Below, in pieces: positions 13,288 through 31,044 of a DNA stretch of 64,000 bases. Origin of the DNA: Acidobacteriota bacterium (GTDB lineage: Bacteria > Acidobacteriota > UBA890 > WLXD01). The stretch covers positions 512,001 through 576,000 of the forward strand of contig CBDBHB010000009.1 in the NCBI GenBank assembly GCA_965205505.1, read 5' to 3'. The notes below the pieces were generated by a model. That model saw only the letters and a list, made by a program, of their open reading frames with translations, was not told the DNA's origin and made no database searches. The position numbers and the translations under genes are program-made. The first letter of the stretch is position 1, and each line of letters begins with the position of its first letter.

Positions 13288-13425
13288 GCGAATCTCTCAA
13301 CACACAGGAGTGAATAATCGGGTCATTGTAGCAAGGCGACCACTCCGGTCCTTGCGGCGCCCTCGCCCATCTTCGTGGTCGCGGCGAGCGTCAGGGACCG
13401 TGTCGTTACGTGTACACTGCGGCCC

Positions 13426-14610: not shown

Positions 14611-14613
14611 GAC

Positions 14614-15390
14614 GTGGGCCCGTCGGCGATCGGGACGCTGGTGGCGGCGTTGTGCTGCGGCGCCAGCGCGATACAGGCGACGCTGTCCATCGAGTACATC
14701 GCTCACGCCAGCTTCTTGATCGAGTCACCGGGCGGCGCCCGCGTCCTGGTGGATCCGTTCGCCAGCCGTGTGTGGATCGGCTACGATTTTCCTGAGGGTC
14801 TGCATCCCGACGCGGTCGTGATCACCCATCCGCACTATGACCACGACGCCGGGCGGTTCCGTGGATCGCCGTTCCCGTGGCCTGAGGCGCGCGTCTTCGA
14901 CGCGCCCGGCGAGTTCTTGGTCGACGACGTCCGTCTGATCGGGCTGCGCGGAAAGCACGCTGATCCGTACGGCGAGGAGTTCGGCCAGCGCAACACGATC
15001 TGGGTGATCGAGACGGCCGGGCTCCGAATCGCACACATCGGCGACAACGGCCCACTGACGCGCGACAACGTTCGCGATCTCGGCGCCATCGACATTCTCA
15101 TGTTGCCGATCGATGCCCAGTACCACATCCTGGCGCGCGAGGAGGCCGCCGCGATCGTCACGGAGGTGCAACCACGGCATCTGGTACCGATGCACTATCG
15201 GCTGCCGGAGCTGGAGCCGGATCCCGACTCGCCCGATGACCTCGGCACCATCGAGCCCTGGCTGCAGAGCCGCGCCGGAGTTGTGCGGCTCGGTTCTCAC
15301 CGGTGGCAGGTGGGGCTCGATACGCTGCTCCCTGCCGGCAGCACAATCGTCTTCGAGCCTTCGCCGCTGATGGCACGGCCATCGCGCTAG
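14614..15390 (+). CDS. Secreted MBL-fold metallo-hydrolase
   Basis: HASFLI, THPHYDHD, HIGDNG, VPMHY; signal peptide. Confidence 0.88.
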   Translation: MGPSAIGTLVAALCCGASAIQATLSIEYIAHASFLIESPGGARVLVDPFASRVWIGYDFPEGLHPDAVVITHPHYDHDAGRFRGSPFPWPEARVFDAPGEFLVDDVRLIGLRGKHADPYGEEFGQRNTIWVIETAGLRIAHIGDNGPLTRDNVRDLGAIDILMLPIDAQYHILAREEAAAIVTEVQPRHLVPMHYRLPELEPDPDSPDDLGTIEPWLQSRAGVVRLGSHRWQVGLDTLLPAGSTIVFEPSPLMARPSR

Positions 15391-15423
15391 CTAGCAGGCC
15401 ATACTTCCACCACGGCCTGCTAG
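15391..15423. repeat. Family B palindromic repeat CTAGCAGGCC...GGCCTGCTAG
   Basis: 10-bp perfect terminal inverted repeats including CTAG, directly after a TAG stop. Confidence 0.7.
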
Positions 15424-15621
15424 TGTCCTGTAACAGAGGTTCGTTGCATATCGCTCCTGCCCTCCGGGTGGCCGCGGGACCGGCCACCTTGGGCGTCGCG
15501 GCGCCTCGACCTTGGGCGTCGCGGCGCCGATACACCCAGCATCGCCCTCGCCGCCGCTCCTACAATTCGCCCCGGTCGCGCGCGCCACAAACGTCACCGT
15601 ACTTATGATCAGGAGCACTAG
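15420..15621. mobile_element. MITE-like non-coding element bounded by CTAG
   Basis: 15588-15621 is the exact reverse complement of 42776-42809; 15446-15460 matches 42809-42823; internal 20-nt duplication at 15486 and 15509. Confidence 0.6.
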
Positions 15622-16348
15622 GGATCGGAGTCGAACGGCGCTCCCAGTGCTGTCGCGAACGCGCGGATGCGCGCCGCGTTCGCTCCCAGATCGCTTCGGC
15701 CCACGCGCGACGTCGAGCGTACGTCAACGACCGATCCCGACGAGGCCGGACGGACGCGCACGACGAAATCGTCCACGAAAGCGAAAACACCCGATACCGC
15801 ATAAGCCTCGATGCGGCCGTCGGCACGGTTGCTGAAGGCAATGGTTAGGCCGATCTCCTCCACTGCCCGGATGGCCGCCGCGTGAGCGGCACCGGGGTCG
15901 AGGTCGAGCTCGATGGGTCGCAAATCGGGATAAGCGCGTCGTTGCTCGACGATGACCTCGGCGCCGCCGTGCGGATAGGTCAAATCGCGGCTGGCGTTAT
16001 CGTCGTGGTCGAGGGCGACACGGTAAGCGGGCGCGTCGTCGGGTGACGTGGTGATGTCGTGAATCGGCGGCGCGTTCATCTGCAGAATGGTGGCCAGCAG
16101 CGCAATGATCAGCGCCGTGCCGCCGAAGAGTCCGCGTTGGCCTGCCGCCGGCGAGCGCGAATCCCTCCGTGCTCTTCGCCAGGCGAGCAGGCCGAGGGCG
16201 ATGCTGAGCAGCCCCCTAGGGCCCAAGTGAGCACGAAGACTCCGACCCCGCTCAACGGCCTGGCGGCGCCGACATGGATCGCGGCAATTGCGCCCGCCAT
16301 GATACCGACGGTAACGATGGGGGAGTATGCTGCACTCTGCGTCAACAT
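15618..16348 (-). CDS. DUF1499 domain membrane protein, frameshifted in a homopolymer at ~16212-16216
   Basis: PPIHDITT, QRRAYPDL, GRIEA, FVDDFVVRV, VDVRSTSRVGRSDLGANAARI; N-terminal helices lie in another frame starting at ATG 16348 with AGGAG SD. Confidence 0.8.
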
Positions 16349-16541
16349 TCTTTGCTCCTGCAGCGTCGGCAGACGCGCCGAGAATGCGTTTCAGAGTCTT
16401 GATCGGCTCGCTATCGAGCTCCTCGAGTCCGACCTCGACGAGACGTCCGCCGGCATTGCCGGCCCGCTGTCGACGTACGCAGAGTACAAGAGCCTCTGCC
16501 GCCGCGCCCCTGCCAGCTCGTTCGACTCCAGGTAGACTCTT

Positions 16542-17294
16542 GTGATGGCTGAAGACTGCGAAGAGCTCGTGGCGATCATTGCGGCGAGGGAGGACGAGCT
16601 CGTGCCGCTGCGCGAGCGTGTACTAGTTTCCGAGGAAATCAAGGACGGGCCCCGCTACTACGTACGAGGCACGTTGCGCGGCGTGCAGGTCGTACTCGCG
16701 GTGACCGGCGATGGCAAGCGTAACGCCGATCTCGGAATCCGACGGTTGATCCAGGTGTGCGCGCCGACGCGCGTCCTGGCGGTCGGGATGGGAGGTGCGC
16801 TATCGGCGGACCTTGCGGTTGGCGACCTGGTGGTTTCCAGCGAGGTGATGGAGGGAGAACGCACGCTGGCCTGTCCGGATCTGCAGTGGCTGGAGGAGGC
16901 GTCGCTTCATCTGGACTATGACCTCGGGCGGCTGGTTACCGTCGACGAGATACTGGCGACGCCATCCAGCAAGTCGGAGTGGTACGGAAGGACATGGCGC
17001 GATCAGCCCGCTGCCGCTGATATGGAGTCAGCCTGCTTCGCCAGGGTGGCCGTGGCCTACAAGCTTCCATACTTGATCGCGCGGGCTATCAGCGACGCCG
17101 CCAACGAGGTGCTGCCAGACTACCTTGAGGACTGCCGTGCGCAGGACGGCAGCATCGACAAGCGGCAGGTGTTTTGGAAGACAGTCTGGCGACCACGCTC
17201 GTGGGGCAGCATCGTACGCTTGCGCTCGCGCATGCGGCGGTGCGCTAGCACACTGGCCGATTTCGCCGAAGGGCTCGTTGCCGCATTGGCGTAG
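16542..17294 (+). CDS. Nucleoside phosphorylase family protein, HpnG-like (hopanoid-associated phosphorylase)
   Basis: TGDGK, GMGGAL, GDLVV, DMESA, RAISD, and a C-terminal DGSID...WRP...VRL extension as in HpnG-type proteins. Confidence 0.7.
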   Translation: MMAEDCEELVAIIAAREDELVPLRERVLVSEEIKDGPRYYVRGTLRGVQVVLAVTGDGKRNADLGIRRLIQVCAPTRVLAVGMGGALSADLAVGDLVVSSEVMEGERTLACPDLQWLEEASLHLDYDLGRLVTVDEILATPSSKSEWYGRTWRDQPAAADMESACFARVAVAYKLPYLIARAISDAANEVLPDYLEDCRAQDGSIDKRQVFWKTVWRPRSWGSIVRLRSRMRRCASTLADFAEGLVAALA

Positions 17295-17471
17295 GTAGCT
17301 ACGTTCCCACCGTTCACGGTGCGCGTCGCCAGTATGCGGCATTGACATGCCCCGAGGTGTCAAGGACACTCGGAACCCTACGCCCTCAGTGCGCTGCGCT
17401 GGTCTTGAACGCCGCGCGCCCGCCTCTCGTGCGTCGCTATTGCCGGCGCCGATGCCGCGTTGCGAGTACGC

Positions 17472-18518
17472 ATGAGCAGTACCGATTCACCGGCCGCCAA
17501 GCCACCGGCGGCGCGCGACCGCAAGGCCGAGCACATCCAACTGGCGCTCGAAGAGCGAATGCAACACGGCAGTCGCGGCTTCGATGCCTGGCAGCTCGAG
17601 CATTGCGCGCTTCCCGAGCTCGACCTGGCCGAGGTCGACCTCAGCACCGAATTCCTCGGCAAGCAGCTGATGGCGCCGCTGCTTATCTCCTGCATGACCG
17701 GTGGCACCGCTGACGCGGCCGGGATCAACCGCAACCTGGCAGTCGGGGCCGAGCGTGCGGGTGTTGCGGTTGGCGTGGGGTCGCAGCGCAAGGCGCTGGA
17801 GGATCCTACGCTCCAAGCTACCTTCCAGGTTCGCGAGCACGCCCCCACGGTACCCCTGTTGGCCAATCTGGGTGCGGTGCAACTGAACTGCGGGTACGGC
17901 GTCGCCGAGTGTCGGGCGGCCGTTCGTATGATCGATGCGGACGCTCTCGTGTTGCACCTGAACCCTCTGCAGGAGGCAATTCAGCCCGAGGGCGATGTCA
18001 ACTTCGCCAACCTGTTGCCCAAGATCGAAGCGATTGTTCATCAACTCGAGGTGCCGGTCATCGTCAAGGAGATCGGCATGGGCATATCGCTGTCGGTGGC
18101 CGAGCGGCTCGCCGAAGCCGGCGTCCGTATCATCGACACGGCGGGACATGGGGGCACCAACTGGGCCCGTATCGAAGCACAGCGTGCCGACGATCTCGAG
18201 CTCGGCGCGATGTTCGCCGACTGGGGAATTCCAACGCCCGACAGCATCCGCGCCGTCGCCAGCGTGCCGGGAGTCACCGTTATTGGCAGCGGCGGGGTCC
18301 GTACTGGAATCGACGTGGCCAAGGCGGTAGCGCTCGGCGCTGACATGGTCGGCCTGGCGTATCCGTTCCTCAAAGCGGCCCTGGAGTCGGCCGATGCGGT
18401 GGTGGCGCGGATCGACCGTACTCTGACCGAGCTCAGGGTGTCGATGTTCTGCGCCGGCATCCGTACAATGGCCGATCTGCGTGCGGCGAATCTGACCGAC
18501 CGAGCGCCCCGCCGATGA
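17472..18518 (+). CDS. fni: Type 2 isopentenyl-diphosphate delta-isomerase
   Basis: RKAEHI, SCMTGG, GSQR, ANLGAVQL, HLNPLQE, VIVKEIGMG, GGTNW, SGGVR. Confidence 0.96.
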   Translation: MSSTDSPAAKPPAARDRKAEHIQLALEERMQHGSRGFDAWQLEHCALPELDLAEVDLSTEFLGKQLMAPLLISCMTGGTADAAGINRNLAVGAERAGVAVGVGSQRKALEDPTLQATFQVREHAPTVPLLANLGAVQLNCGYGVAECRAAVRMIDADALVLHLNPLQEAIQPEGDVNFANLLPKIEAIVHQLEVPVIVKEIGMGISLSVAERLAEAGVRIIDTAGHGGTNWARIEAQRADDLELGAMFADWGIPTPDSIRAVASVPGVTVIGSGGVRTGIDVAKAVALGADMVGLAYPFLKAALESADAVVARIDRTLTELRVSMFCAGIRTMADLRAANLTDRAPRR

Positions 18519-19762
18519 ACGACACGGCCGAGCCGGTCGACCAGGACGCCCTCGTCGACGAGATTGCAGCCGGTACCCGGCGCTTTCATCAGCTGCCGCC
18601 CGAGCTCAGCGCTGCTGATGCAGCAGCCATTCGACGGCAGGCCCTCGAGCGCCTCGCCGGAGCAACTCTGACACACACCGGCAAGTACTCGTTCGACGCG
18701 ACGCGCGCCGCCGGCAGCCATTGCGAGAATCTGATCGGTGTGACACAGGTGCCGGTCGGCATAGCAGGGCCACTGCTCGTGCGGGGTGATTACGTCGACG
18801 GTGAGGTCTATGTCCCTCTGGCCACGACGGAGGGAGCGCTCGTCGCCAGCATAAACCGAGGCTGTGCGGCCATCCGGGCCGCTGGCGGGGCCACCGTGTA
18901 TGTGGAGGACGTCGGCATGACCCGGGCGCCGGTGTTTCGCTCCAGCGGGCTGGCGCAGACACGTGAATTCCTCCGGTGGGTTACCGACAACGAGGATGAG
19001 ATCCGCTCCGTGGCAGAGGGCACGAGCCGTTTCCTGCAGCTCGTGGATATCCGCCCCTATGCTTTCGGTACCACGATCTTCCTGCGCTTCAGGTTCCGCT
19101 CAGGCGACGCGATGGGAATGAACATGGCAACCATCGCCTGCGATCAGCTAGTACGCGAGCTGATCGAGCCAGCGACCGGCGTGCGTTGCGTCGCTCTTTC
19201 CGGAAACTACTGTACCGACAAGAAGCCCGCAGCGATCAACTTTCAGGAAGGCCGCGGCAAGCGCATACATGCGCAGGTCAGACTCGACGCCGATGTGCTG
19301 GCGCGCCTGAAGACGAGCTCGGCCGAGCTGCTCGAGGTGCAGTACCGCAAGAACCTGCTGGGCTCGATCGCTGCCGGTTCGATAGGTTTCAACGCCCACG
19401 TCGCCAATGTCCTCGCGGCAGTGTTTCTCGCCACTGGGCAGGATCCGGCACACGTAGTGGAAGGGTCGATGGGAATCACCTCCATCGAGCCTGGCGACGA
19501 GGGTGGCGTGGTGGCATCGATGTACCTGCCTGCTGTCCCGCTGGCGGCGATCGGCGGTGGTACTGCGCTCGATACGCAACGCGAGGCGCTCGCTTTGCTC
19601 GGCGTCGCGCCGGAGCCGGACCGGCCTGGCGTCGCGGTGTTGCGATTGGCCGAGATCCTCGGCGCCGCCGTTCTCGCAGGCGAGCTGTCGCTGCTGGCCG
19701 CCCTTACCTCTCAGGACCTCGCCGGCGCCCACAAGCGGCTGGGGCGCGCCCAGGCCGGCTAG
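18515..19762 (+). CDS. hmgA: Class I (NADPH-type) HMG-CoA reductase
   Basis: CENLIG, PLATTEGALVASINRG, GMTRAP, GDAMGMNM, SGNYCTDKK, TGQD.AH, GGGT, C-terminal catalytic His. Confidence 0.96.
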   Translation: MNDTAEPVDQDALVDEIAAGTRRFHQLPPELSAADAAAIRRQALERLAGATLTHTGKYSFDATRAAGSHCENLIGVTQVPVGIAGPLLVRGDYVDGEVYVPLATTEGALVASINRGCAAIRAAGGATVYVEDVGMTRAPVFRSSGLAQTREFLRWVTDNEDEIRSVAEGTSRFLQLVDIRPYAFGTTIFLRFRFRSGDAMGMNMATIACDQLVRELIEPATGVRCVALSGNYCTDKKPAAINFQEGRGKRIHAQVRLDADVLARLKTSSAELLEVQYRKNLLGSIAAGSIGFNAHVANVLAAVFLATGQDPAHVVEGSMGITSIEPGDEGGVVASMYLPAVPLAAIGGGTALDTQREALALLGVAPEPDRPGVAVLRLAEILGAAVLAGELSLLAALTSQDLAGAHKRLGRAQAG

Positions 19763-19774
19763 GCGGTCACACCG

Positions 19775-20893
19775 ATGGATGCAGCGCGGTCGCTCGAACG
19801 GCGCTTGCTAGCACGCGTTTCAGTGCCTGGAAAGCTCATCCTCATGGGTGAACATGCCGTCGTCTACGGTCGACCGGCGCTGGTGGCCGCCACCAGCCTG
19901 CGCCTACGGATCGACCTGTACCGCAGCCACCGGGCCGGCGTGGAAGTGGAGCTGCCGGAGCTCCAGTACCAAGACCATGTCTCGTGGCAGGAGATCCTGC
20001 GTTATGCGAGCCGAATGCGGCAACGGTGGGAACGCTACGATGCGAGCCCGACGCCCGAGGTGTTCGCTAGCCTTCAGGACGACCGCGCCGACCGGCTGGT
20101 GCTGCTCGCACTGGGCGAGGCCATCACGGCGCTGGGTGAGGATCCGGGCGCGAAGGGCCATCCGCTGAGCGCGCTGCGGCTTCGGGTGGACTCGGCGGTG
20201 CCGATGCAGGCCGGCTTCGGGAGCTCCGCCGCCATCGCTGTGGCGGTGGTGACGGCGGTTTGTGCGCTCTTCGGCCGGGCGGAGAGGTGGTCGCTGATCG
20301 GGCCGATCGCGGGCGAGGTGGAGCGCCGGCAGCATGGCGCGCCGTCTGGTGTAGACGTCGCGACCGTGTTTCACGGCGGCATGTTGCGCGCCCGCCGCGC
20401 CGGCGAAGAGCTATCGATCGAGCCGCTGGCGGCGCGCCCTGACACCCTGCGGCGGCTGCGCCTCTTCGATACGGGTCGCTCGGCCGAGCCGACCGGCACG
20501 GTGGTCGCGGCAGTACGAGCACAGCATGACCTTCACCCAGGCAGCTTCGAGGAGTCGTTGGACGCCGCCGAAACCGCAACCCTGGCCTTCCAGGCTGCGG
20601 TTACCGCCTCGGCCGACCGGATCGACTTAGTGCCACCGATCCGCGATGCTCAGCGCTACCTGGAGTCTCTCGGGGTGGTGCCCGAGCCAGTATGCGACGC
20701 TGTCCGCGCTATCGAAGCGCTGGGTGGCGCTGCCAAAATCTCTGGTTCGGGTTCGCTCGCAGGTCCAGGGGCCGGGTCCTTGTTGGTACTGCTGCCGGAT
20801 GGCATCGAGAATCTCCCCGAGCCGCTGGCGAGGTTTCCGGAGCACGAAGTGTCGCTGGGCGCCGAGGGTGTGTGGGTAGAGGTGGTGTCATGA
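19775..20893 (+). CDS. mvk: Mevalonate kinase (GHMP)
   Basis: PGKLILMGEHAVVYG, GFGSSAA, HG.PSGVD, KISGSG. Confidence 0.9.
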   Translation: MDAARSLERRLLARVSVPGKLILMGEHAVVYGRPALVAATSLRLRIDLYRSHRAGVEVELPELQYQDHVSWQEILRYASRMRQRWERYDASPTPEVFASLQDDRADRLVLLALGEAITALGEDPGAKGHPLSALRLRVDSAVPMQAGFGSSAAIAVAVVTAVCALFGRAERWSLIGPIAGEVERRQHGAPSGVDVATVFHGGMLRARRAGEELSIEPLAARPDTLRRLRLFDTGRSAEPTGTVVAAVRAQHDLHPGSFEESLDAAETATLAFQAAVTASADRIDLVPPIRDAQRYLESLGVVPEPVCDAVRAIEALGGAAKISGSGSLAGPGAGSLLVLLPDGIENLPEPLARFPEHEVSLGAEGVWVEVVS

Positions 20894-21915
20894 GTCGCAG
20901 CGCCACCGTCGAAGCACCTTCCAATATTGCGTTTGTGAAGTACTGGGGTGCCGCTGACCTGGAGAAGGCCATCCCACTCAACGCCTCGATCTCGATGTCG
21001 TTGCGGGCGTGCGTTACAAGGACGAGCGTCGAGACGCTCGCGGCCGGCGCCGACGACGAGATCTGGATATGTGTCGAGGGTCAATGGCGTCGCGCCGAAG
21101 GGGCGTTCGAGCATCGCGCCGCAGCGCATCTGGAGGGTATGCGGCGCTGGGCCAAAGTCGACGTGGGTTTTAGGGTTGCCACGGAGAACAGCTTTCCCGC
21201 CGCCGCCGGTATTGCCTCGTCGGCTTCCGGCTTTGCGGCACTTACCATGGCAGTGCTGGCGGCGCTCGAGCGAGAGCCGGCGGGCGATGAGCTATCGAAT
21301 CTGGCGCGGTTGTCTGGCTCGGGCTCCGCATCGCGGTCGGTTTTCGGCGGCTACGTGCAGTGGCCGCACGGCGACGAGGCGGACCCGTGGCGCGCCGCGC
21401 CGCTGGCGACAGCCTCGCATTGGGACCTGCGCGACGTAATCGCCATTGTGCAGACCGGTCCCAAGGCAGTGTCGTCTCTCGAGGGGCACGCCGGTGCCAC
21501 CACCAGCCCCCATTTCGCGCGCCGGCAGGAGCTGATCCCGTCGCGACTTCAACGGGTGCGCGACGCCATCGCGGCGCGCGACCTGGACCGACTCGGTCCG
21601 GTCGTCGAAGAAGACGCAATTGAGCTCCACCTGGTAGCGATGTCCTCGCAGCCCCCGATCTTCTACTGGCGGCCGGCGACGCTTCGCGTGCTGGACCATG
21701 TTCGCGTTCTGCGCAACGGCGGCACGTCGGCGTGGGCAACGATGGACGCCGGGGCGAACGTGCATGTGATTTGCTCTGCCGATGACGAGGAGGACGTCGC
21801 CGCCGGGCTGGAGGCGCTGGATGGTGTCCAAGCCGTGATCCGCGACGGCGTGGGCTCGGGCCCGCGGGCCCTGCCGGTATCGTTGTTCGACGCTCTCGAT
21901 CGAGCGCGACCGTGA
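20890..21915 (+). CDS. mvaD: MvaD-family decarboxylase, by context probably phosphomevalonate decarboxylase
   Basis: SNIAFVKYWG, NSFPAAAGIASSASGFAAL, SGSASRS, TMDAGANVH. Confidence 0.9.
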   Translation: MSRSATVEAPSNIAFVKYWGAADLEKAIPLNASISMSLRACVTRTSVETLAAGADDEIWICVEGQWRRAEGAFEHRAAAHLEGMRRWAKVDVGFRVATENSFPAAAGIASSASGFAALTMAVLAALEREPAGDELSNLARLSGSGSASRSVFGGYVQWPHGDEADPWRAAPLATASHWDLRDVIAIVQTGPKAVSSLEGHAGATTSPHFARRQELIPSRLQRVRDAIAARDLDRLGPVVEEDAIELHLVAMSSQPPIFYWRPATLRVLDHVRVLRNGGTSAWATMDAGANVHVICSADDEEDVAAGLEALDGVQAVIRDGVGSGPRALPVSLFDALDRARP

Positions 21916-22712
21916 ACGATCTGGTGGTGATCAAGCTGGGCGGCAGCTTGATCACCCACAAGCGCCGCCATCGAACGGTAAGGCGGGCTGAGCTTTCGCG
22001 ACTCGCCGGCGAGATCGCGGCGCTGACCCGCGGCTCTCGATTCCCGGTGCTGCTAGGGCACGGCAGCGGGTCCTTCGGGCACGTCGCGGCAGCGCAGTCG
22101 GGCGTCCATGAGGGGATGGCCGGGCGTGGCGCGCGGGTCGGTGTTTCGCAGACGCAGGCTGCCGCTTCCGAGCTGCACGCGATTGTCATGAGCGCTCTGC
22201 GTGAGGCCGGCGTGGCTGCCTACTCGGTGGCTCCGTCGAGCGCCATTGTTGCCCGAGGCCCCGGTCTTCGGCCGAGCGTGCACCTGGAGCCAGTGCGGCG
22301 AGCGCTCGACAGTGGACTGCTACCCGTTATGTATGGCGACATCGTCATGGACCGGCAACGTGGCTGTTCGATCTGCTCCACCGAAACGGCACTGCTTGCA
22401 TTCGCTCGCTCGCTAGGCTCGTCGAATCGGTGTGTCTCCGATGCCATCTGGCTCGGAGACACCGACGGCATTCTTGATGGAGATGGGGTGAGCGTTGCTC
22501 GCGTCCGCTTGCGAGATGCCAGGCGCGTCCGTCGCCTGGTGAGCGGCGCGGCCGCGACCGATGTGACCGGCGGCATGCGCCATCGCCTCGAGGCTGCGTT
22601 GGCGCTAGCCCGCATCGGCGTGCGGTCCTATCTGCTCGATGGCCGTCGGCCGGGCATCCTGCGACGTGCGCTGCGAGGCGCCACGGTGCCGGGGACGATC
22701 GTCGAGCCCTGA
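21912..22712 (+). CDS. Isopentenyl phosphate kinase (amino acid kinase fold)
   Basis: KLGGSLITHK, HGSGSFGH with the IPK-diagnostic His, YGD, DVTGGM. Confidence 0.88.
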   Translation: MNDLVVIKLGGSLITHKRRHRTVRRAELSRLAGEIAALTRGSRFPVLLGHGSGSFGHVAAAQSGVHEGMAGRGARVGVSQTQAAASELHAIVMSALREAGVAAYSVAPSSAIVARGPGLRPSVHLEPVRRALDSGLLPVMYGDIVMDRQRGCSICSTETALLAFARSLGSSNRCVSDAIWLGDTDGILDGDGVSVARVRLRDARRVRRLVSGAAATDVTGGMRHRLEAALALARIGVRSYLLDGRRPGILRRALRGATVPGTIVEP

Positions 22713-22760
22713 GCAGCGGCGGCTTTCGTCGCCTGGGCCGCGCCGCCGCCAAGGTGGATA

Positions 22761-23714
22761 ATGGTCCTCGGCCAGCCAAAGCCAGGCGCACGCATGGACC
22801 GCATCGAAGACCTTCTCGAGAAGACCAGCCGCACGTTCGCGCTATCGATCCCGTTGCTGCCGGAGCCGACCCGCCGCGAGCTCGGGATCGCCTACCTGCT
22901 ATTCCGCATTGCGGACACCTTCGAGGATGCGTCCGAATGGGGCCGACAGCGGCGGATCGATGCCCTCGAGGAGTTCATGAGCCTGGTTCGACATCCAGAC
23001 GAGCAGCGAGCCGCGAAGCTCGGACGCAGCTGGGCCACTTCCGTACCGATTGATCATCCCGGCTATCTCGAGCTACTCCGCGAATCGGCAACCGTGATCC
23101 GGGAGTACCAGCGTCTGCAGCCTGGCGCACGGGGGATCATCCGCAAGCACACGTTGCGGACCGCTGCCGGCATGGCCGGATTCGTCAATCGCTCTGTCGA
23201 TGGTGTGCTCAAGCTCGAGTCTCTAGCTGACCTACGCGAGTATTGTTACGTGGTTGCCGGTATTGTCGGTGAGCTCAGCACCGACTTGTTCCTTCTCGAG
23301 CGCCCGCAGCTGGCGTCGTCGATCGAGTTCTTGCAACAGCGCGCTGCGCGGTTTGGTGAGGCGCTGCAGCTGGTCAACATCCTCAAGGATGCTGCCGACG
23401 ACCGGCGTGAGGGGCGGTGTTACCTGCCCGCGGCGCTGAAGCGCAGGGAGATCTTCCGGTTGGCCCATGAAGATCTCCGAGTAGCGGCGCACTACACCAA
23501 CGCACTGCAGGCGGCGAGCGCGCCGCGCGGCATCATCGCGTTCTGCGCCCTGCCGACACGGCTTGCCGTCGTTGCCCTCGACGTCGTCGAGCGATGCGGG
23601 CCCGGCGCAAAGATCTCCCGCGAAGAGGTTGCCGAGATCGTCCAGGCCATGAACCTAGATCTCGAGGCCGGTGCTCCAGCGGTGCCGATTCCAGCAACCG
23701 CGAAACCGACGTGA
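22761..23714 (+). CDS. Squalene synthase-like (squalene/phytoene synthase family)
   Basis: SRTFALSI, YLLFRIADTFED, YCYVVAGIVG, FGEALQLVNILKD, GRCYLP. Confidence 0.88.
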   Translation: MVLGQPKPGARMDRIEDLLEKTSRTFALSIPLLPEPTRRELGIAYLLFRIADTFEDASEWGRQRRIDALEEFMSLVRHPDEQRAAKLGRSWATSVPIDHPGYLELLRESATVIREYQRLQPGARGIIRKHTLRTAAGMAGFVNRSVDGVLKLESLADLREYCYVVAGIVGELSTDLFLLERPQLASSIEFLQQRAARFGEALQLVNILKDAADDRREGRCYLPAALKRREIFRLAHEDLRVAAHYTNALQAASAPRGIIAFCALPTRLAVVALDVVERCGPGAKISREEVAEIVQAMNLDLEAGAPAVPIPATAKPT

Positions 23715-23743
23715 CCAAGCCGGCGGCTGGCGCGGTTGCGAGA

Positions 23744-24565
23744 TCATTTTCCGGCGCCTTCGGGGTTAGCTCTCGTGGCGCGGTCGATCCAGGCGTCGGC
23801 GTCCGGATGGCCGCGTTGCTGCCATTCCCGGGCTCGATCGATGGTCCGCCGATAAGCGTCGCGGCTTGCCGCGTCGTCTTCGACTTCGGCGTAGGCCTCG
23901 GCTAGCGCGAGGAGGTTTGGCGGGTACTCGGGGTAGAGCTCGACGGCCCGTTGCGCCTGCTCCAGGCCCTCGTCCGCGTTGCCGGGACCGGTGGGCCAAC
24001 CGGGCGCTTGCACCAGCATCTGCGATAGCACGCGTCGGGGTCCGGCGTAGTCGAGGCGTTCGTGCCCGGCGATGGCAGCGCGGAGCTCGCGTTCCATTAT
24101 GCGTAGCCCGTCCGAAGCCGTGGCGCGACGCTGGTTGGCTTGTACGCCGATGGCGATCGCCAGCCAGTAATGACAGTCCGGGTTTGTTGGCTCCCGTCTT
24201 CGACACCACTGGGCTGTTTGCACTGCCTCGGTGGCCTTGTCCCTGCGTGCCTGCGGATCGTCCAGATGCTCCCCAAGCCAGGTCTGTGCCCTCACGGCAC
24301 CGATGACTGCCAGCGCGCTGGACGGACGGGCGATGGCAGATCGGATCCAAAGAGCCTCGGCCTGGCGCACCGCGTCGACATTGGGGCGTCGCCCGAATTC
24401 TCCCTCGGCGTCGGCCGCCAGACGGGCAGCCTCCTGCGCGTCGACGCGTTCCGGATCGACGTGGCCGAGCGCCGAACTCGTGTCAAGCGGCTGGAGTGCA
24501 GCGGCACACGCGGACGAAGTAAGGGCTGCGGCAGCTAGCAAGGCGGCGCCACGACGAAGCCTCAT
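23744..24565 (-). CDS. TPR-like lipoprotein (BstC/TatT-like)
   Basis: Lipobox-like LTSSAC; helical repeats; YWLAIAIG, LDYAGPRRVL..QAPGWP.GPG; last gene of the MMPL operon. Confidence 0.6.
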   Translation of the reverse strand: MRLRRGAALLAAAALTSSACAAALQPLDTSSALGHVDPERVDAQEAARLAADAEGEFGRRPNVDAVRQAEALWIRSAIARPSSALAVIGAVRAQTWLGEHLDDPQARRDKATEAVQTAQWCRRREPTNPDCHYWLAIAIGVQANQRRATASDGLRIMERELRAAIAGHERLDYAGPRRVLSQMLVQAPGWPTGPGNADEGLEQAQRAVELYPEYPPNLLALAEAYAEVEDDAASRDAYRRTIDRAREWQQRGHPDADAWIDRATRANPEGAGK

Positions 24566-25434
24566 TGAGCCGCCGAGTATGCCGCCCGGGCAAGGCCCAG
24601 CGCCTCAGCGTCCAGGGCTTCGAAGCGCTGTAGCTGCATGGTTTCGAGCACGTCAGCGAAGCTCGCCGACTCGTGGACACCGAGTAGCCCCTTGACCAGC
24701 TGCTGGCGCACCGGCTCGGGGACGCGGTCGCCCAGGGCGACGACGAGCCAGGCCAAGAGAGGCGGCGACGTTGCCACCACCTCGAGCGACTCCGCGCCCG
24801 GAAACGAAGCCAACGCGGCGGTCTGGGGGCCATCGAGAAGTACGGCAACTTCCTCGCCGGCGGCCACTCGGCGTATGCCGGCAAGCACCCGCCGCGTGAA
24901 CTTGACCGAAAGCGAATCCGGGAGCGCTCCCCAATCCGCCAGCGCCGGCCCGCGTACGAAACTGGGTGCGTATGCCGGAAGCCCTAATAGCTCCCAGCCA
25001 GCGAGCGACTCGGGCCCGGTGATCACCCCGGCGGAAGCCACCAGGCTCCAACGCTCGGTAGCGCTCCCGGACGCCTGCACCGCCTGCGCCACCGCGGTGA
25101 GCGCCAGCTCCTGCTCGTACTTCAGATACAAGGGCAGTGGCACCAGCGCCAACGACGTGGCGTTGTCGCGTAGACGACTCACCCCGGCTTCCTCGCTCGG
25201 ATGGTATTCGGCCGTCAAGGTCCCTGCCGGCCACCCGGAGGCGTCCGAGACCATCGCCGCGAAATCGTTCATCGTCGGCTGCGCCTGCTCGGTGTTGCTC
25301 GGATACCCTGGCGCGCAGGCCACCAGCCGCAGAGTGTCCAGGCCGGCGAATGCGCCACCCCGACTCCCGCCGCCGGCCGGCGGTACAGTTGCCGTCGTTG
25401 CAAACAGCGCCACCGCGAAGAGAAGCTTGTTCAT
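24562..25434 (-). CDS. Periplasmic binding protein, phosphonate-binding-like fold (BstB-like); alternative start 25455
   Basis: Signal peptide MNKLLFAVAL; CAPGYP...AQPTM..FA N-terminus; two-lobe binding-protein pattern; 4-nt overlap with the lipoprotein gene. Confidence 0.6.
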   Translation of the reverse strand: MNKLLFAVALFATTATVPPAGGGSRGGAFAGLDTLRLVACAPGYPSNTEQAQPTMNDFAAMVSDASGWPAGTLTAEYHPSEEAGVSRLRDNATSLALVPLPLYLKYEQELALTAVAQAVQASGSATERWSLVASAGVITGPESLAGWELLGLPAYAPSFVRGPALADWGALPDSLSVKFTRRVLAGIRRVAAGEEVAVLLDGPQTAALASFPGAESLEVVATSPPLLAWLVVALGDRVPEPVRQQLVKGLLGVHESASFADVLETMQLQRFEALDAEALGLARAAYSAAQ

Positions 25435-25502
25435 CGTCGGCGCGGATCCGTTCACCTGTGGCGAAGGTTGTCAGTAGTCTTCGAAAGAATACCCGCGACC
25501 CT

Positions 25503-28196
25503 TCAGCGGCGCGCGATCCCGCTCACGATCAGCAGGTTCGGCAGCACGATCAAGGCGGCGATCGTGCAAGCGCCGACCCCCAGCAACAGCAGGGCCCCGA
25601 GGCTCGCCATGCCACGATGTGTAGCGAACACGAGGCTCCCGAATCCCACCATGGTCGTAAGCGAAGCGATGAGGATCGCCCGCCCGGTATGCGAAACGAC
25701 CGTCATGATGCCGGCGCTGCCCTCCAGTCGCAGTCGGTGGATGATGTGGACTCCGGCATCGATGCCAACACCCAGGACGATCGGTACCGCCACCAGGTTG
25801 GCGAAATTGAACGACAGGCCGAGTGCCCACATGAGTCCGAGCATCCATACCGTCCCGAAGAAGACGGGTACGAGTGCCAGGGCCGTGTGTTGCGTGTTAC
25901 GCAGATCCAGTAGCAACACCAGGAACACGAGCAACGCGGCGCTCGCGAATGCTAGCCCGAACCCCGAGGTGATCAAGGCAGAATGGCTCTCGAAAAGCAC
26001 CGGAAAGCCGATGGCATTGCTGGCGACGCGGCGCGACGCGACGTTGAACTGTCCCAGGAAGCCGGTGTCATAGATGTCGCCCGCCGGGAACAGATAGCCG
26101 ACGTATCGACCGTCCTCGGTCATGAACCGATCGACGATCTCGGAAGGCAAGGATGCGCGGGTCGGGAGCGGCACGCTGGCGGCGTCGCGCAGCTGCTGTA
26201 GGGCGCTGAACGCCACGACGCGCAGCGCCTCCTGCGCTTCGGCCCACTCGGCGAGCCTCTCCGGGCTCGCCGCCATCGCTAGCTCGATGGCTCCTGCGGT
26301 CGCCTGACGGGCCTTCTCCAGGGCTCCGGACACCCCTCCCAGCCCGGCAACGAATGCGTCGTCGGCGGCGGTGGCGAGGGCAGACTCGAGTCGCAACAGC
26401 GAGTCACTCAGTCGGCGCCCGTCGAACGCGGCCACGGTCAGCTCGATGACTTCCAGAGTCCTACGGGCGCGCGCCGCGGCGGCCTCCGACGCGAGCGGTT
26501 GATCGGGCAGGAATGTGAGTATCGATTCGAACCGACGGATGCTGGCCTCGTCCTCGGCGCGCGAGCGTAGCGCGCGGAGCTGCTCCAGATCCTCGGCGAC
26601 GACGAGGTTGAAGTCGTGGCTGAGCGCCGACTCGTCGTTGATGATCTCCAGATAATGGATTGACTCGGAACCTGCCGGGAGAAGCTCTAGCAGGCTCGGC
26701 TCCAGCTCCACGCGGCTCGCTGCGAGCCCGGCGATCGCGGTCAGGCCGATCGCCAGCGCGACGACGAGGCCCGGTGACGCGCAGACCCAACGGGCCGCCC
26801 GATCGTCCCAGATCTGGTCAACGGCGGCACGCGCTGCCGCGTTGTCGTGTTCGGGGGCACCGCGCAACAGCAGCAGTGCCGGTAGCACTAGCAGGGCGGC
26901 AAGCAGGCACAGCAGCACGCCGACGCTGGTAACCAGGCCCAGCTGGGAAAAACCACGAAAATCCATGAGCAGCAGACAGGCGAACGCGGCCGAGGTGGTG
27001 AACGCAGACGCGACGACCGCGGCACTCGTCGTTCGAAGCGTGGCGCGCACGGCCTCCCGGCGACCCTTGTTCTGCCGTTCGAGCTCGTACTGCGATAGGG
27101 GGTGCACTGCGTAGTCGATACCCATGCCGACGAGAATGGGGATCAGTGCCGTGGTGATGATGTTGAGCGACCCGATCTCCAGCTGCACCGCGCCAATCGA
27201 CCAGGTGACTCCGGCCGCCAGGGTCGCCAGGCCGAGCAGAGCGTGGCGTCGCCGGCGGAACACCAGCAACGAGATTCCGAGCACGCCGACGATGGCGATC
27301 AACGAGGTGCGGCGGGTGTCCCGTCCTATGGCATTCATCTCTTCCACGGCCATCGCGGCCGGGCCGGTGAGTCCATAGCGAACGCCTGCACGCTCCGACA
27401 ACACGGCCGCGACGGCCACCCGGACGCTATCCACCAGCGCCCGCTGAGCTTCCAGGCTGTCATCGAAATACGCAGGGCTGACCAGTACGAACACGACACG
27501 CTCATCGCTGGTCGACAGGTAGCCATCGCCGGTCAACGATCCGCGCCGCCCGCTGTCTATCAGCATTAGCGGCACCTGCTTCAGCCGATCGACAAACCCA
27601 TGAGGATCGGTGAGGAAGTCGCGCTCGGCGTCGACGAGGTCGAGCAGCCAGGCGGCCGCTACGGCGGCATCGTCGGACGGCAAGACACTGCCTGATTCGA
27701 GCGAATCCTCGATGTCAGTGGCGCTGCGCAGGTTCAGATCGGCCCAGCTCGTCAGGATCAGCTTGCCGTCGACGGCAAGTAGCCGCTGCACCATCTCGAA
27801 CGCTTGTTCGACCATGTCCGCCGGTGCCAGGGCAAGCGCATGATCGGCAAGCCAATCGAAGTCGACGCGGTAGAACACGCTACGTACCTGCGGGTCCGCT
27901 TGCAGGTGCTCGGCGATCTCGCGTGCTGTGGTTTCCAGGTCCTCGACCGATACGCCGCTTGCGCTTGCTTCCAGCGCGATAATGAGCGGCTCGGCGCTGG
28001 CGAACTGTGAGCGCAGCGAGTTCCATCGCGCCTGGCTCACGTCATCTTCCGGCACCAGCTCTTGTCGGGAGGTCAGAAGCTCGATTCCCGTCCCCAGCCA
28101 AATGGAGATCGCGCCCAGCGCTAGAGCGACGGTAAGCACGGCGCGTGGATGGTCCAGAACCAGCGACTCGGCGCGCCTGAGCACAAGGCGTATCAT
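25503..28196 (-). CDS. MMPL/RND lipid transporter (HpnN/BstA-like)
   Basis: Duplicated halves with GLTGP, GMGIDYAVH and GVGIDAGVH, SLTTMVGFGSL; ~12 TM helices. Confidence 0.92.
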   Translation of the reverse strand: MIRLVLRRAESLVLDHPRAVLTVALALGAISIWLGTGIELLTSRQELVPEDDVSQARWNSLRSQFASAEPLIIALEASASGVSVEDLETTAREIAEHLQADPQVRSVFYRVDFDWLADHALALAPADMVEQAFEMVQRLLAVDGKLILTSWADLNLRSATDIEDSLESGSVLPSDDAAVAAAWLLDLVDAERDFLTDPHGFVDRLKQVPLMLIDSGRRGSLTGDGYLSTSDERVVFVLVSPAYFDDSLEAQRALVDSVRVAVAAVLSERAGVRYGLTGPAAMAVEEMNAIGRDTRRTSLIAIVGVLGISLLVFRRRRHALLGLATLAAGVTWSIGAVQLEIGSLNIITTALIPILVGMGIDYAVHPLSQYELERQNKGRREAVRATLRTTSAAVVASAFTTSAAFACLLLMDFRGFSQLGLVTSVGVLLCLLAALLVLPALLLLRGAPEHDNAAARAAVDQIWDDRAARWVCASPGLVVALAIGLTAIAGLAASRVELEPSLLELLPAGSESIHYLEIINDESALSHDFNLVVAEDLEQLRALRSRAEDEASIRRFESILTFLPDQPLASEAAAARARRTLEVIELTVAAFDGRRLSDSLLRLESALATAADDAFVAGLGGVSGALEKARQATAGAIELAMAASPERLAEWAEAQEALRVVAFSALQQLRDAASVPLPTRASLPSEIVDRFMTEDGRYVGYLFPAGDIYDTGFLGQFNVASRRVASNAIGFPVLFESHSALITSGFGLAFASAALLVFLVLLLDLRNTQHTALALVPVFFGTVWMLGLMWALGLSFNFANLVAVPIVLGVGIDAGVHIIHRLRLEGSAGIMTVVSHTGRAILIASLTTMVGFGSLVFATHRGMASLGALLLLGVGACTIAALIVLPNLLIVSGIARR

Positions 28197-28326: not shown

Positions 28327-29286
28327 GTGAAGTCACTGATCCTGACCCAGTCCGATATTCACTCCGTGGTGAAGATGAGCGCCGTAGTGCCCGCGATCGA
28401 GGCAGCGTTCGAAGCGCACGGGCGCGGCGAAACGCAAATGCCGGTCAAGGTCTACCTCGATCTACCTGAGTACCACGGCGACTTCCGGGCCATGCCCGCC
28501 TACCTGGACGGATCGGCGGGGGTGAAGTGGGTCAACTCGCACCCGCGGAACCCGGAGGACCACGGGTTGCCATCGGTTCTCGGCATGTACATTCTCAGCG
28601 ACCCGTCCACTGCTGTGCCGTTGGCGGTCATGGATGCAACGCTGCTGACCGCGCTGCGCACCGGCGCGGCTGCGGCTGTCGCCGCCAAGCACCTGGCGCG
28701 GCCGGATGCCCGCACCGTCGGCTTCGTCGGCTGTGGCGTGCAGGCGCGTGCGCTGCTCGACGCACTACGCGTTGTTTTCGGCAATCTACAGATCGTGGCT
28801 GCCGATCAACACCCCGACGCGGCTGCTACTTTTGCCGCTGAGATTGGCGGAACTGTCGGCGACGTGGCGGATGCGTCAGGCTGCGACATCGTCTGCACCG
28901 CAACCCCTTCGCGCACACCGATCGTGCGTCACGAGTGGGTTAAGCCGGGCACACACATCAATGCCGTGGGTGCCGATGCGCACGGCAAACAGGAGCTCGA
29001 GTCGAGCCTGATGACGGCCGCCAAGGTGGTCATTGACGACTGGCAGCAGGCCTGTGAGAGCGGCGAGGTGAACGTGCCCTTGCACGAAGGCTCGCTTGCT
29101 CGAGACGACATTCACGCCGCCCTGGGGGAGATTGTTGCGGGGTTGGCGCCGGGCCGCGAGACGGATGACGAGATTACGGTATTCGATTCCACCGGGCTCG
29201 CCGTGCAAGACGTCGCGTTGGCACGCCTGGTATACGAACAAGCCCGCGCCGCCGAGGTCGGTCTGGAGGTCGATTTTCTCGGCTAA
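28327..29286 (+). CDS. Ornithine cyclodeaminase/mu-crystallin family; archaeal-type alanine dehydrogenase-like
   Basis: MPVKVYL, GDFRAMPAY, GVKWVNSHP, RTGAA, GCGVQA, FDSTGLAVQD. Confidence 0.88.
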   Translation: MKSLILTQSDIHSVVKMSAVVPAIEAAFEAHGRGETQMPVKVYLDLPEYHGDFRAMPAYLDGSAGVKWVNSHPRNPEDHGLPSVLGMYILSDPSTAVPLAVMDATLLTALRTGAAAAVAAKHLARPDARTVGFVGCGVQARALLDALRVVFGNLQIVAADQHPDAAATFAAEIGGTVGDVADASGCDIVCTATPSRTPIVRHEWVKPGTHINAVGADAHGKQELESSLMTAAKVVIDDWQQACESGEVNVPLHEGSLARDDIHAALGEIVAGLAPGRETDDEITVFDSTGLAVQDVALARLVYEQARAAEVGLEVDFLG

Positions 29287-29310
29287 CAGGCCGTGGTGAA
29301 AGTGTGGTGG
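29283..29310. repeat. Degenerate family B repeat
   Basis: CTAACAGGCCGTGGTGAAAGTGTGG versus CTAGCAGGCCGTGGTGGAAGTGTGG at 4636; overlaps the TAA stop. Confidence 0.55.
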
Positions 29311-29361
29311 GGGCCGGCCGTACAGGTGGACCCGGCGCGTACCCATACGAGTGAAGGAGCG

Positions 29362-30492
29362 ATGGCCATGAAAACGCGCGGATTTCAACCGACCAGCCGG
29401 TGGTTTGCCCTGTTGCTGCTCGTCGCCACGGCATGCGGGCCGACGACCGTCGCTGCTCCGGCAGCGATGCAGTACGCGCAGCTGCATCACTCCGAGTACG
29501 GAGCCGCCATCGAGGCTGCGCGCGCTGTTGTTCAGGAGCGCCTGCTCGAGTACCCCGGACTGTCGATCGCCGTTGGAATCGACGACCGGATCGTCTGGGC
29601 AGAGGGATTCGGCTGGGCCGATATCGAGCAGCGTGTTCCGGTGCGACCCACGTCTCGGTTTCGCGTCGGCAGCGTCGCCAAGCCGATGACCGCGTCGCTT
29701 CTCGGCCTGCTCTACGAGGAAGGCAAGATCGATCTCGACGCGCCGGTGCAGACGTACGTGCGGACGTTTCCAGAGAAGAGCCACCCGATCTCTACGCGCC
29801 TGCTCGCCGAGCACCTGGCCGGCATTCGCGACTACGAAGGCGACGAGTTCCTCAGTGCCGTTCGCTACGACACCGTGTCGGATGGGCTGGAAATCTTCGC
29901 TGCCGACCCGTTGCGGTTCGAGCCGAGCACCGAGTACTTGTACTCGAGCTACGGATGGAACCTGATCAGCGCCATCATCGAGGGTGAGAGCGGCGAGGAG
30001 TTTCTATCGCAAATGCAGAGCCGCGTATTCGAGCCGCTCGGCATGCTCGACACAACTTCGGATCAGAATGCCTTGATTGTCCGCGAGCGGGTACGACCTT
30101 ATGAGCGCGGGGATGACGGACTCCTGTACAACGCCCCTCATGTCGACAACAGCTACAAGTGGGCCGGCGGGGGCTTTCTCTCTACTGCACAGGACCTCGT
30201 GCGCTTCGGTATGGCGCACATGAAGCCCGGCTTCTTGCAGATGGCGACCCTGCAGGAGTGGCAGACGTCGCAGCGAACGAACGATGGCGTGGAGACCGGC
30301 TACGGAATGGGTTGGAGCGTTGGCACGGACGCGTCGGGCCGCCGAAGCGTCGGTCACGGCGGCGGCTCGGTGGGTGGAACCACCGGGCTCATGCTGCTGC
30401 CGGATGACTGCTTGGTGATTGCCATCACCAGCAACATGAGCGGCGCGCCAGGTTTTCCCACTCAGGAAATCGTCGATCTGTTCCTGCAGTAG
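29362..30492 (+). CDS. Serine hydrolase (beta-lactamase/AmpC-like family), probable lipoprotein
   Basis: SVAK (SxxK), YSS, HGG; lipobox VATAC; GAAGGAG SD. Confidence 0.9.
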   Translation: MAMKTRGFQPTSRWFALLLLVATACGPTTVAAPAAMQYAQLHHSEYGAAIEAARAVVQERLLEYPGLSIAVGIDDRIVWAEGFGWADIEQRVPVRPTSRFRVGSVAKPMTASLLGLLYEEGKIDLDAPVQTYVRTFPEKSHPISTRLLAEHLAGIRDYEGDEFLSAVRYDTVSDGLEIFAADPLRFEPSTEYLYSSYGWNLISAIIEGESGEEFLSQMQSRVFEPLGMLDTTSDQNALIVRERVRPYERGDDGLLYNAPHVDNSYKWAGGGFLSTAQDLVRFGMAHMKPGFLQMATLQEWQTSQRTNDGVETGYGMGWSVGTDASGRRSVGHGGGSVGGTTGLMLLPDDCLVIAITSNMSGAPGFPTQEIVDLFLQ

Positions 30493-30544
30493 CCGCCGCG
30501 ATCATGGCTGATCCCGAGGTCGGCTACGTCGTTCCGGCAGAAAA

Positions 30545-30602
30545 TGCTGGAAAAACAGCAAATGCTCTTGATCGTCTCCGCGAAAATGCTAGATTTGCAG
30601 CA
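30545..30602 (+). promoter_or_regulatory. Promoter with two TGCT-N8-AGCA boxes (putative BlaI operators)
   Basis: TGCTGGAAAAACAGCA at 30545-30560 and TGCTAGATTTGCAGCA at 30587-30602; -35 TTGATC at 30568 and extended -10 TGcTAGATT. Confidence 0.65.
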
Positions 30603-30644
30603 GTTTCAGCGCGCCATCGAGCGCGCACCCGCCCGATTCCCCTC

Positions 30645-31043: not shown

Positions 31044-31044
31044 G

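Follow-up and report, generated by a model that had tools for sequence, protein, structure and literature searches.

A ten-gene island in a window of 64,000 nucleotides from the genome of an uncultured soil acidobacterium (assembly GCA_965205505.1, contig CBDBHB010000009.1, positions 512,001 to 576,000; the window denotes this whole stretch) places a squalene synthase (SQS) gene tail to tail with the genes of a BstABC-like lipid transporter, which raises the question of which lipid, if any, the host cell makes and moves with these proteins in a genome that has no recognisable squalene cyclase. The reading favoured here, and held to be fairly probable, is that the locus is the cyclase-less remnant of a hopanoid island and that squalene, or one of its uncyclised derivatives, is both made and exported by the cell; we infer both the cargo and the direction of transport. 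In the proposed scheme, the plus-strand operon would provide isopentenyl diphosphate (IPP) and dimethylallyl diphosphate (DMAPP) through 3-hydroxy-3-methylglutaryl-CoA (HMG-CoA) reductase, mevalonate kinase (MK), a mevalonate (di)phosphate decarboxylase (MDD), isopentenyl phosphate kinase (IPK) and type 2 isopentenyl-diphosphate isomerase (IDI2), and would end in SQS, with farnesyl diphosphate (FPP) synthase and HMG-CoA synthase encoded elsewhere completing the route to squalene. The minus-strand operon would form a BstABC-type, envelope-spanning lipid relay in which a proton-driven MMPL pump of the inner membrane works with a BstB-like carrier in the periplasm and a lipoprotein of the BstC kind, and by which squalene or its uncyclised derivative could be moved from the inner to the outer membrane.

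The ten genes were identified from the listing of open reading frames (ORFs) together with Pfam and NCBIfam profile scores, and their identities, the overlaps of 4 bp and the gap of 29 bp between the convergent operons all hold as given in a preliminary description of the window. The island consists of two operons arranged tail to tail. Start and stop codons overlap by 4 bp at four junctions (IDI2/HMG-CoA reductase, MK/MDD, MDD/IPK and BstB/BstC), the real start of the MDD gene being the ATG at 20890, which lies in an ATGA overlap with the MK stop, and the stop of the SQS gene is separated from the convergent stop of the BstC-like gene by the 29 bp from 23715 to 23743. Promoter and terminator consensus scans return sites no more numerous than in shuffled sequence. 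Genes for a cyclase, a squalene epoxidase, an HMG-CoA synthase and an FPP synthase are all missing from the window, as the same description had noted, and the last two are found elsewhere in the assembly (5.98 Mb in 9 contigs, 96.3% complete).

A squalene synthase facing a BstABC-type transporter

The synthase encoded at 22761..23714 on the plus strand belongs to the SQS_PSY family (squalene and phytoene synthases; Pfam PF00494, 129 bits), is the sole PF00494 gene product of the genome and contains both Asp-rich motifs, DTFED and DAADD. In a single-sequence search, the best PDB matches are solved squalene synthases (E 2e-11), and a profile of 21 sequences from its clade matches squalene synthases at E 2e-23 over positions 6-265, compared with E 2e-12 over 116-216 only for CrtM/phytoene synthase. 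The best profile matches are eukaryote-type enzymes (human, fungal and trypanosomal; PDB 3vj8, 7wgh and 3wca), and the alignment with them spans the two Asp-rich motifs, a YCYxVAG segment and an F-x-A-x-P segment, whereas the window protein is only 317 residues long, has no membrane anchor and leaves its C-terminal ~50 residues unaligned. The protein misses the cut-off of TIGR01559 (94 bits, cut-off 287), and its relatives number 4266 proteins at E 0.001 among 8000 candidates scored, the named ones coming from metagenome-assembled genomes (MAGs) of Acidobacteriota, Thermoanaerobaculia and Gemmatimonadota. Orthologues with 55-60% identity are the only PF00494 genes in three genomes that carry a squalene-hopene cyclase (SHC), namely G005 (91% complete), G008 (71% complete) and G047 (unpublished), and because the cyclase needs squalene, this orthologue group must, by gene content, supply it. 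Judged from its sequence, the enzyme belongs to a divergent bacterial clade of squalene synthases that lies closest to the eukaryote-type enzymes, and it is not a phytoene synthase. This agrees with the squalene synthase-like assignment made from the letters alone, and squalene is the probable product of the enzyme.

On the opposite strand, a co-oriented operon encodes an HpnN/BstA-like MMPL inner-membrane pump of the resistance-nodulation-division type (25503..28196), a BstB-like periplasmic binding protein with a PhnD fold (24562..25455) and a BstC-like lipoprotein of the tetratricopeptide repeat (TPR)/TatT type (23744..24565), all on the minus strand. Sequence and fold comparisons agree with the BstABC-like character first ascribed to this triad. 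The BstB-like protein has 7t1m (BstB, E 4e-9) and the BstC-like protein 7t1s (BstC, E 9e-16) as its sole PDB sequence match, and the same two entries are the top Foldseek PDB matches of the corresponding AlphaFold2 models, which were built with alignments (pLDDT 88.9 and TM 0.83 for BstB, pLDDT 88.6 and TM 0.74 for BstC). Identity to the solved chains in the Foldseek alignments is 21-26%, and next in rank come oxyanion-binding proteins in the case of the BstB-like model and, for the BstC-like one, TPR/TatT proteins that bind lipids. The best PDB sequence match of the pump is HpnN (6wu0/5khn, E 1e-44). The N-terminus of the BstB-like protein resembles a signal peptide, and Cys20 of the BstC-like protein, which follows a hydrophobic leader and is a candidate lipidated cysteine, is conserved without exception in 15 homologues, and so are Cys121 and Cys131. 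All three proteins remain below the curated cut-offs: the pump scores 372 bits with TIGR03480 (cut-off 752), 350 bits over its full length with the BstA model NF045600 (cut-off 1400) and 233 bits with a second HpnN model, NF052374 (cut-off 1100), the BstB-like protein 65 bits with NF045601 (cut-off 350) and the BstC-like protein 81 bits with NF045602 (cut-off 350). The triad is a distant relative of BstABC and HpnN that forms a separate subfamily, and because it lies below every cut-off, its cargo is not readable from family membership.

In composition, the operon corresponds to BstABC of Methylococcus capsulatus (PMC10942540, PMC11713862; PDB 7t1m, 7t1s), which the available parts of these reports likewise present as a co-oriented operon of MMPL, PhnD-fold and TatT/TPR lipoprotein genes, and both operons adjoin genes for triterpenoid synthesis, those next to the Methylococcus bst genes being sterol genes according to the available part of PMC10942540. 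The two systems differ in their neighbours, which in the window are mevalonate (MVA) and SQS genes (and in relatives hopanoid genes) rather than osc or sdmAB, and in their hosts, the window belonging to an acidobacterium whose genome has no sterol pathway. As far as the accessible text of PMC10942540 and PMC11713862 goes, BstABC clusters are small and centred on Methylococcaceae, and no link to hopanoids is described. HpnN of Burkholderia multivorans (PDB 5khn/6wu0), the best solved sequence relative of the window pump, resembles it additionally in that the orthologous pump in G005 and G008 belongs to an island with shc and hpnH; the window pump, however, is partnered by BstB- and BstC-like proteins instead of the MlaC-like HpnM, the MlaA-like HpnS or the lipocalin HpnT, and its own genome has no hopanoid pathway. 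Partners of HpnN have so far been proposed for proteobacteria only, in a 2025-26 preprint that names HpnM/HpnS and HpnT and whose available text does not mention Bst proteins (bioRxiv 10.1101/2025.07.29.667474). A literature search, with supplements outside its reach, found no paper in which BstB/BstC-like proteins are connected with hopanoid clusters or squalene. That a BstABC-type relay accompanies hopanoid rather than sterol islands is new.

Hopanoid ancestry and loss of the cyclase module

A sample of 60 relatives and the own genome, 61 in total, was searched with the BstB-like protein, and 18 window proteins were compared with 11 regions. BstB-like matches occur in 15 of the 61 genomes: nine of the ten from the own family have one, the 15 from the sister family have none, and a few more come from other families of the phylum. 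The full colinear island, from the HpnG-like gene through SQS facing BstC-BstB-BstA, is present in three genomes of the same genus (G001, G003 and G004) as well as in G007 and G005, and the loci of G002 (L029), G008 (L031) and G009 (L032) add to this count. The tight arrangement is therefore kept in 8 of the 10 family relatives at 45-95% protein identity; one further relative has it in an interrupted form (G006, L030 at about 11600-19500, where an insert of ~8 kb that includes a 1235-aa ORF lies between BstC and SQS), and G010, which is 77% complete, has neither gene. The arrangement of the island is more than chance.

Strong SHC matches are found in 9 of the 61 genomes, two of which, G005 and G008, belong to the own family. 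In G008, SHC (737 bits), HpnH (363 bits), HpnA (469 bits), the orthologue of the HpnG-like gene and IDI2 follow one another on one strand, and in G005 the order is SHC, HpnH, an IS481 transposase, the HpnG-like orthologue, the MVA genes and SQS facing BstC-BstB-BstA. Additionally, the SQS orthologue of G047 lies near HpnH, SHC, DXS and IspH. Because shc-hpnH(-hpnA) stands upstream of the orthologue of the nucleoside phosphorylase gene in both family members, its position marks this gene as HpnG, and the island from which the locus descends is a hopanoid island with the order shc-hpnH-hpnA-hpnG-MVA-SQS facing the transporter. The IS481-family transposase gene of G005 (L118:1200-2204) is situated between hpnH and the HpnG-like gene, and this junction is where the cyclase module is missing in the clade of the window.

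The gene in question, at 16542..17294 on the plus strand, encodes a nucleoside phosphorylase/nucleosidase (PNP_UDP_1, PF01048, 85.5 bits) that scores 89.7 bits with the HpnG model TIGR03468 (cut-off 187) and 92 bits with a methylthioadenosine/S-adenosylhomocysteine (MTA/SAH) nucleosidase model (cut-off 169). Its orthologue follows shc-hpnH-hpnA in G008 and shc-hpnH in G005 on the same strand, and HpnH is absent from the own genome. The possibility that it provides the only MTA/SAH nucleosidase of the cell was considered and rejected, as a PF01048 search finds PunA, MTAP and three MTAN-like paralogues elsewhere in the genome.

The genome-wide search suggested in the preliminary description returns HMG-CoA synthase, but shc/osc, squalene epoxidase, hpnH, IspH and DXS are not recovered. 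In the own genome, the cyclase domain PF13243 gives two matches of 22 bits only, PF13249 and the squalene epoxidase domain PF08491 give zero matches, tblastn searches with the SHC and HpnH proteins of same-family relatives find neither, and the same search with HpnA finds only short-chain dehydrogenases/reductases (SDRs) of 31% identity. Relics of shc, hpnH or hpnA were also sought ahead of the HpnG-like gene with relaxed settings, over 13000-17300, and only noise resulted (E >= 0.08). Since no SHC or oxidosqualene cyclase (OSC), HpnH or squalene epoxidase is found, no polycyclic triterpenoid is expected. None of the eight other genomes of genera g1, g3 and g4 (four congeners, three g3 genomes and G007) has a strong PF13243 match; together with the own genome, these nine cyclase-less genomes of three genera include one that is assembled in 2 contigs and is 97% complete.

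The two PF13243 matches, at G000:C8:1121771-1121983 and C9:1747092-1747298 (L001 and L002), were examined as hidden cyclases and rejected: both lie in near-identical, membrane-anchored CxxCH proteins of 420-435 aa with a single sub-threshold QW-like repeat. These proteins, whose CxxCH is a haem-binding motif, contain the only squalene-cyclase-domain matches of the genome, all sub-threshold, and are also present in the congeners.

A tree of concatenated BstA, BstB and BstC was built with the quick search of IQ-TREE from 15 rows and 1455 columns, omitting G009, which has a partial BstA, and the three truncated loci L040, L051 and L073; its root was set on six co-oriented triads of other Acidobacteriota. 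The tree places G005 first and G008 next, which represent two early-branching genera and both have SHC, and unites the seven cyclase-less rows in one clade (SH-aLRT 98). On the order given by this transporter tree, a single loss removed the cyclase module, in the ancestor that this genus shares with two sister genera. In the outgroup, SHC is patchy even between close sisters (L046 has it and L050 does not), which reflects either recurrent loss or incomplete MAGs.

Despite the loss, the remaining genes are not decaying. Ratios of nonsynonymous to synonymous substitution (dN/dS, NG86 method), obtained for the own genome against its congeners G004, G001 and G003 (with dS ~1, near saturation, for G003), are 0.05-0.10 for the HpnG-like gene, 0.12-0.20 for SQS, 0.12-0.16 for BstC, 0.19-0.32 for BstB, 0.19-0.22 for BstA and 0.08-0.20 for the MVA genes, and those of the flanking genes are 0.07-0.35. 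The island genes are intact in every genome examined, and the island is under purifying selection. Since SQS, the transporter and the HpnG-like gene are all intact and constrained, the cell most likely still makes squalene and moves it or an uncyclised derivative. The persistence of the relay and SQS in a cyclase-less clade is new, and this clade amounts to a natural experiment in which a squalene synthase and an exporter have stayed under selection long after the loss of hopanoids. For annotation and for the use of biomarkers, it follows that SQS, HpnG-like and HpnN-like genes in these Acidobacteriota do not imply hopanoids.

The claim that the system as a whole is undescribed does not stand, since the locus is a hopanoid-island remnant and a related gene set has been reported for an SD22 acidobacterial MAG (PMC5462960, in its available part). 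According to the accessible text of that report, the SD22 acidobacterial MAG 'Mor1' has MVA genes, shc, hpnH and an SQS-like gene and no methylerythritol phosphate (MEP) pathway, and SD6 genomes can make squalene and are without shc, so that both mevalonate-based hopanoid potential and cyclase-less squalene synthesis have precedents in the phylum. 'Mor1' shares with the genome of the window a reliance on mevalonate in place of MEP and on one SQS-type enzyme in place of HpnCDE, features in which it also matches G005 and G008. It differs from the genome of the window, which has no shc or hpnH; the part of the report available describes no transporter triad, and hpnN does not occur in that report.

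Cargo of the transporter

The family to which the BstB-like protein belongs is sizeable and almost unstudied. A word-indexed search returns 142 homologues, nearly all nameless or hypothetical, a profile search of 1.84 billion representatives returns 808 at E <= 0.001 and 548 at E <= 1e-10, and 269 BstB relatives were confirmed in GTDB species genomes. The loci of the best 80 of these 269 were surveyed, their ORFs being clustered with a filter on GC content at third codon positions (GC3) against antisense ORFs. Their hosts are Acidobacteriota (Thermoanaerobaculia, Ca. Polarisedimenticola, Vicinamibacterales, Holophagae and Terriglobia), Anaeromyxobacteraceae and Gammaproteobacteria of the Steroidobacteraceae type. 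BstC follows BstB in 76 of the 80 loci; of the four exceptions, three are cut off by the edge of a contig. Two MMPL architectures accompany the pair, a co-oriented HpnN/BstA-like pump of 900 aa (14 loci) and a divergent HAE3-type MMPL protein of 780 aa (59 loci); these and the size of the BstB-BstC family are new.

Linkage to SQS and the MVA genes, which had been put forward as a check on the proposed function, proves to be conserved within the own family and nearly absent outside it: SQS lies within 10 kb of BstB in 6 of the 80 loci, and five of these are from the own family. Triterpenoid neighbours outside the family are SHC in L054 and L081 and HpnA, HpnH, IDI2 and SQS in L100. Including Myxococcota loci and Methylococcus, the linkage of BstB-BstC to triterpenoid genes is recurrent and independent. 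Genome content was sampled for SHC and PF00494 in 50 of the 75 loci outside the family, which are mostly the longer ones and not a random choice and which include the unpublished G101; 21 of these genomes have a strong SHC match and 37 have a PF00494 gene. Six Thermoanaerobaculia loci (L035, L041, L045, L047, L052 and L065, at about 11600-13400 in each) combine MMPL and BstB-BstC with a convergent protein of the steroid-5-alpha-reductase family (PF02544), five of them additionally with an HpnA/3-beta-hydroxysteroid-dehydrogenase-like SDR, and their genomes contain neither an SQS/PSY gene nor SHC, which indicates that the cargo at these six loci is no self-made triterpenoid. Other BstB loci contain Mla genes and TonB-type receptors.

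Several observations weigh against the export of squalene by the window relay. BstB-BstC occurs in sampled genomes outside the family that have no PF00494 gene (13 of 50) or no SHC (29 of 50), and its presence in genomes devoid of SQS/PSY or SHC means that the family at large is not bound to triterpenoids of the cell's own making. The adjacency of SQS may be a leftover of ancestry and not a sign of shared function today, the triad misses all curated cut-offs for BstA, BstB, BstC and HpnN, and the tree from which the order of loss was read follows the transporter genes and not the species. Why the HpnG-like gene is so strongly constrained in a genome that has no HpnH is unexplained, and 4% of the genome is unassembled.

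These points bear above all on the alternative that the transporter is unrelated to squalene today, carries polyprenol-type lipids, quinones, phospholipids or scavenged lipids and owes its position to ancestry, an explanation that we regard as unlikely though by no means negligible. The BstB genomes devoid of PF00494 or SHC, the scarcity of SQS near BstB, the Mla and TonB-receptor genes and the six Thermoanaerobaculia loci all speak for it. It sits poorly, however, with a tight convergent adjacency that persists in 8 of 10 relatives from the family, even where identity falls to about 50%, with the recurrence of triterpenoid linkage in Myxococcota loci and in Methylococcus (available part of PMC10942540) and with the distribution of PF00494, which is found in 36 genomes of the 61-genome sample, comprising all 15 with BstB and 21 of the 46 without, these genomes being kin and not independent. 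An end product other than squalene would result if squalene or dehydrosqualene fed a C30 carotenoid pathway through a CrtI/CrtO-like flavoprotein and the pigment were exported. A squalene route to such carotenoids has been reported in several phyla, including some Acidobacteria (PMC9907078, in the part available), and the genome encodes five CrtO-like amine-oxidase paralogues; these paralogues, however, reach only 113-149 bits on crtI_fam (cut-off 238), none is near the island, and they lie among amidase, IclR, acyl-CoA dehydrogenase, acyl-CoA ligase and linalool dehydratase/isomerase (Ldi)-like genes with no carotenoid partners, which makes this explanation very improbable.

It is just as doubtful that a cyclase is present and has been missed, either in the unassembled part of the genome or as a non-homologous or very divergent enzyme, so that the island would still make a polycyclic triterpenoid. 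Completeness is 96.3% and not 100%, and the two odd QW-repeat proteins might be cited in favour of such an enzyme, but nine genomes of three genera, among them the one in 2 contigs, all have no strong PF13243 match, HpnH and HpnA are absent too, and each of the QW-repeat proteins is anchored in the membrane, carries CxxCH and has a single sub-threshold repeat. Least credible is a role of the triad in sterol transport, such as BstABC has in Methylococcus capsulatus. BstB and BstC are indeed the nearest solved relatives, but neither an OSC-type cyclase nor a squalene epoxidase is found in the genome, the scores fall far below the BstA/B/C equivalog cut-offs, and the relatives tie the triad to hopanoid genes and not to sterol genes.

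The reading of the island as a cyclase-less hopanoid remnant whose relay probably exports squalene bears on a wider problem. The passage of hopanoids and other very hydrophobic triterpenoids through the periplasm is not explained by HpnN alone, and the BstB/BstC module, described until now from one sterol-making methanotroph, is here linked to hopanoid islands of Acidobacteriota and Myxococcota. A tentative and rather speculative extension is that uncyclised squalene could be the end-product envelope lipid of this acidobacterial clade, brought to the outer membrane by a BstABC-type relay, and that BstB/BstC may represent a third, non-homologous solution to the periplasm for HpnN-type pumps, besides HpnM/HpnS and HpnT. 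If true, this would be the first dedicated squalene-trafficking system and would make squalene a functional bacterial membrane lipid.

One of the CrtO-like genes mentioned above has a neighbour of separate interest, a linalool dehydratase/isomerase-like protein (PF18566, 264 bits) at G000:C6:305565-307211 (L129:9565-11211). A zinc alcohol dehydrogenase and an acyl-CoA ligase are encoded nearby, and the group may form a terpenoid catabolic cluster.

Isoprenoid supply and flanking genes

Upstream of SQS, the plus-strand operon encodes IDI2 (17460..18518; TIGR02151, 396 bits against a cut-off of 281), a class I NADPH HMG-CoA reductase (18515..19762; TIGR00533, 444.4 bits against 441.8), an MK-like GHMP kinase (19775..20893; TIGR00549, 132 bits, below the cut-off of 163, this being its best-scoring family), MDD (20890..21915; TIGR01240, 220 bits against 171) and IPK (21912..22712; NF040647, 153 bits against 120). 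The genes that complete the route are encoded outside the window in the same genome, HMG-CoA synthase scoring 244 bits with TIGR01835 and FPP synthase 325 bits against a cut-off of 275, and an octaprenyl-type long-chain prenyl synthase is also encoded elsewhere. No paralogues of MK, MDD or IPK are found in the genome by tblastn with the window proteins. IspH has no match in the 96.3%-complete genome, and DXS has sub-threshold matches only, which are transketolase- or pyruvate-dehydrogenase-like; without IspH and with no DXS above its cut-off, the MVA operon is the only IPP route of the cell. The operon is therefore housekeeping and not a dedicated supply, so that, of the preliminary description, the linkage of SQS and the MVA genes to the triad holds within the family, and the dedicated character of the MVA pathway does not.

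The alternative mevalonate pathway through isopentenyl phosphate occurs in Chloroflexota and haloarchaea. The window operon resembles it in gene content, with MK, an MDD-family decarboxylase, an IPK above its cut-off and IDI2, and with phosphomevalonate kinase (PMK) undetected by TIGR01220, a weak search in which 0 of 14 control genomes passed the cut-off either. It differs in that its gene set is fused to an SQS gene and in that the decarboxylase scores favour the diphosphate type, the protein being above the cut-off of the diphosphomevalonate model (220 against 171) and below that of the phosphomevalonate decarboxylase model NF040704 (153 bits against 475), which counts against a phosphomevalonate substrate. 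Because the IPK gene adjoins and no PMK is found, the decarboxylase may nevertheless act on mevalonate 5-phosphate, and on the strength of gene content, a route through isopentenyl phosphate is likely.

A second lineage with a mevalonate-linked SQS and no cyclase is represented by G029, from another family of the phylum, in which an IDI2-HMG-CoA reductase-MK-IPK-SQS operon is found at L121 (G029:C85:41000-56180); this genome has no BstB match and no SHC.

Beyond the pump, a gene of the ornithine cyclodeaminase/mu-crystallin family (28327-29286) is transcribed divergently from it and keeps this position in all family loci examined, with 71-92% identity. It is followed at 29293-32916 by co-oriented genes for a PF00144 beta-lactamase-like protein, a BlaI-type repressor (Penicillinase_R) and a BlaR1-type M56 sensor peptidase.

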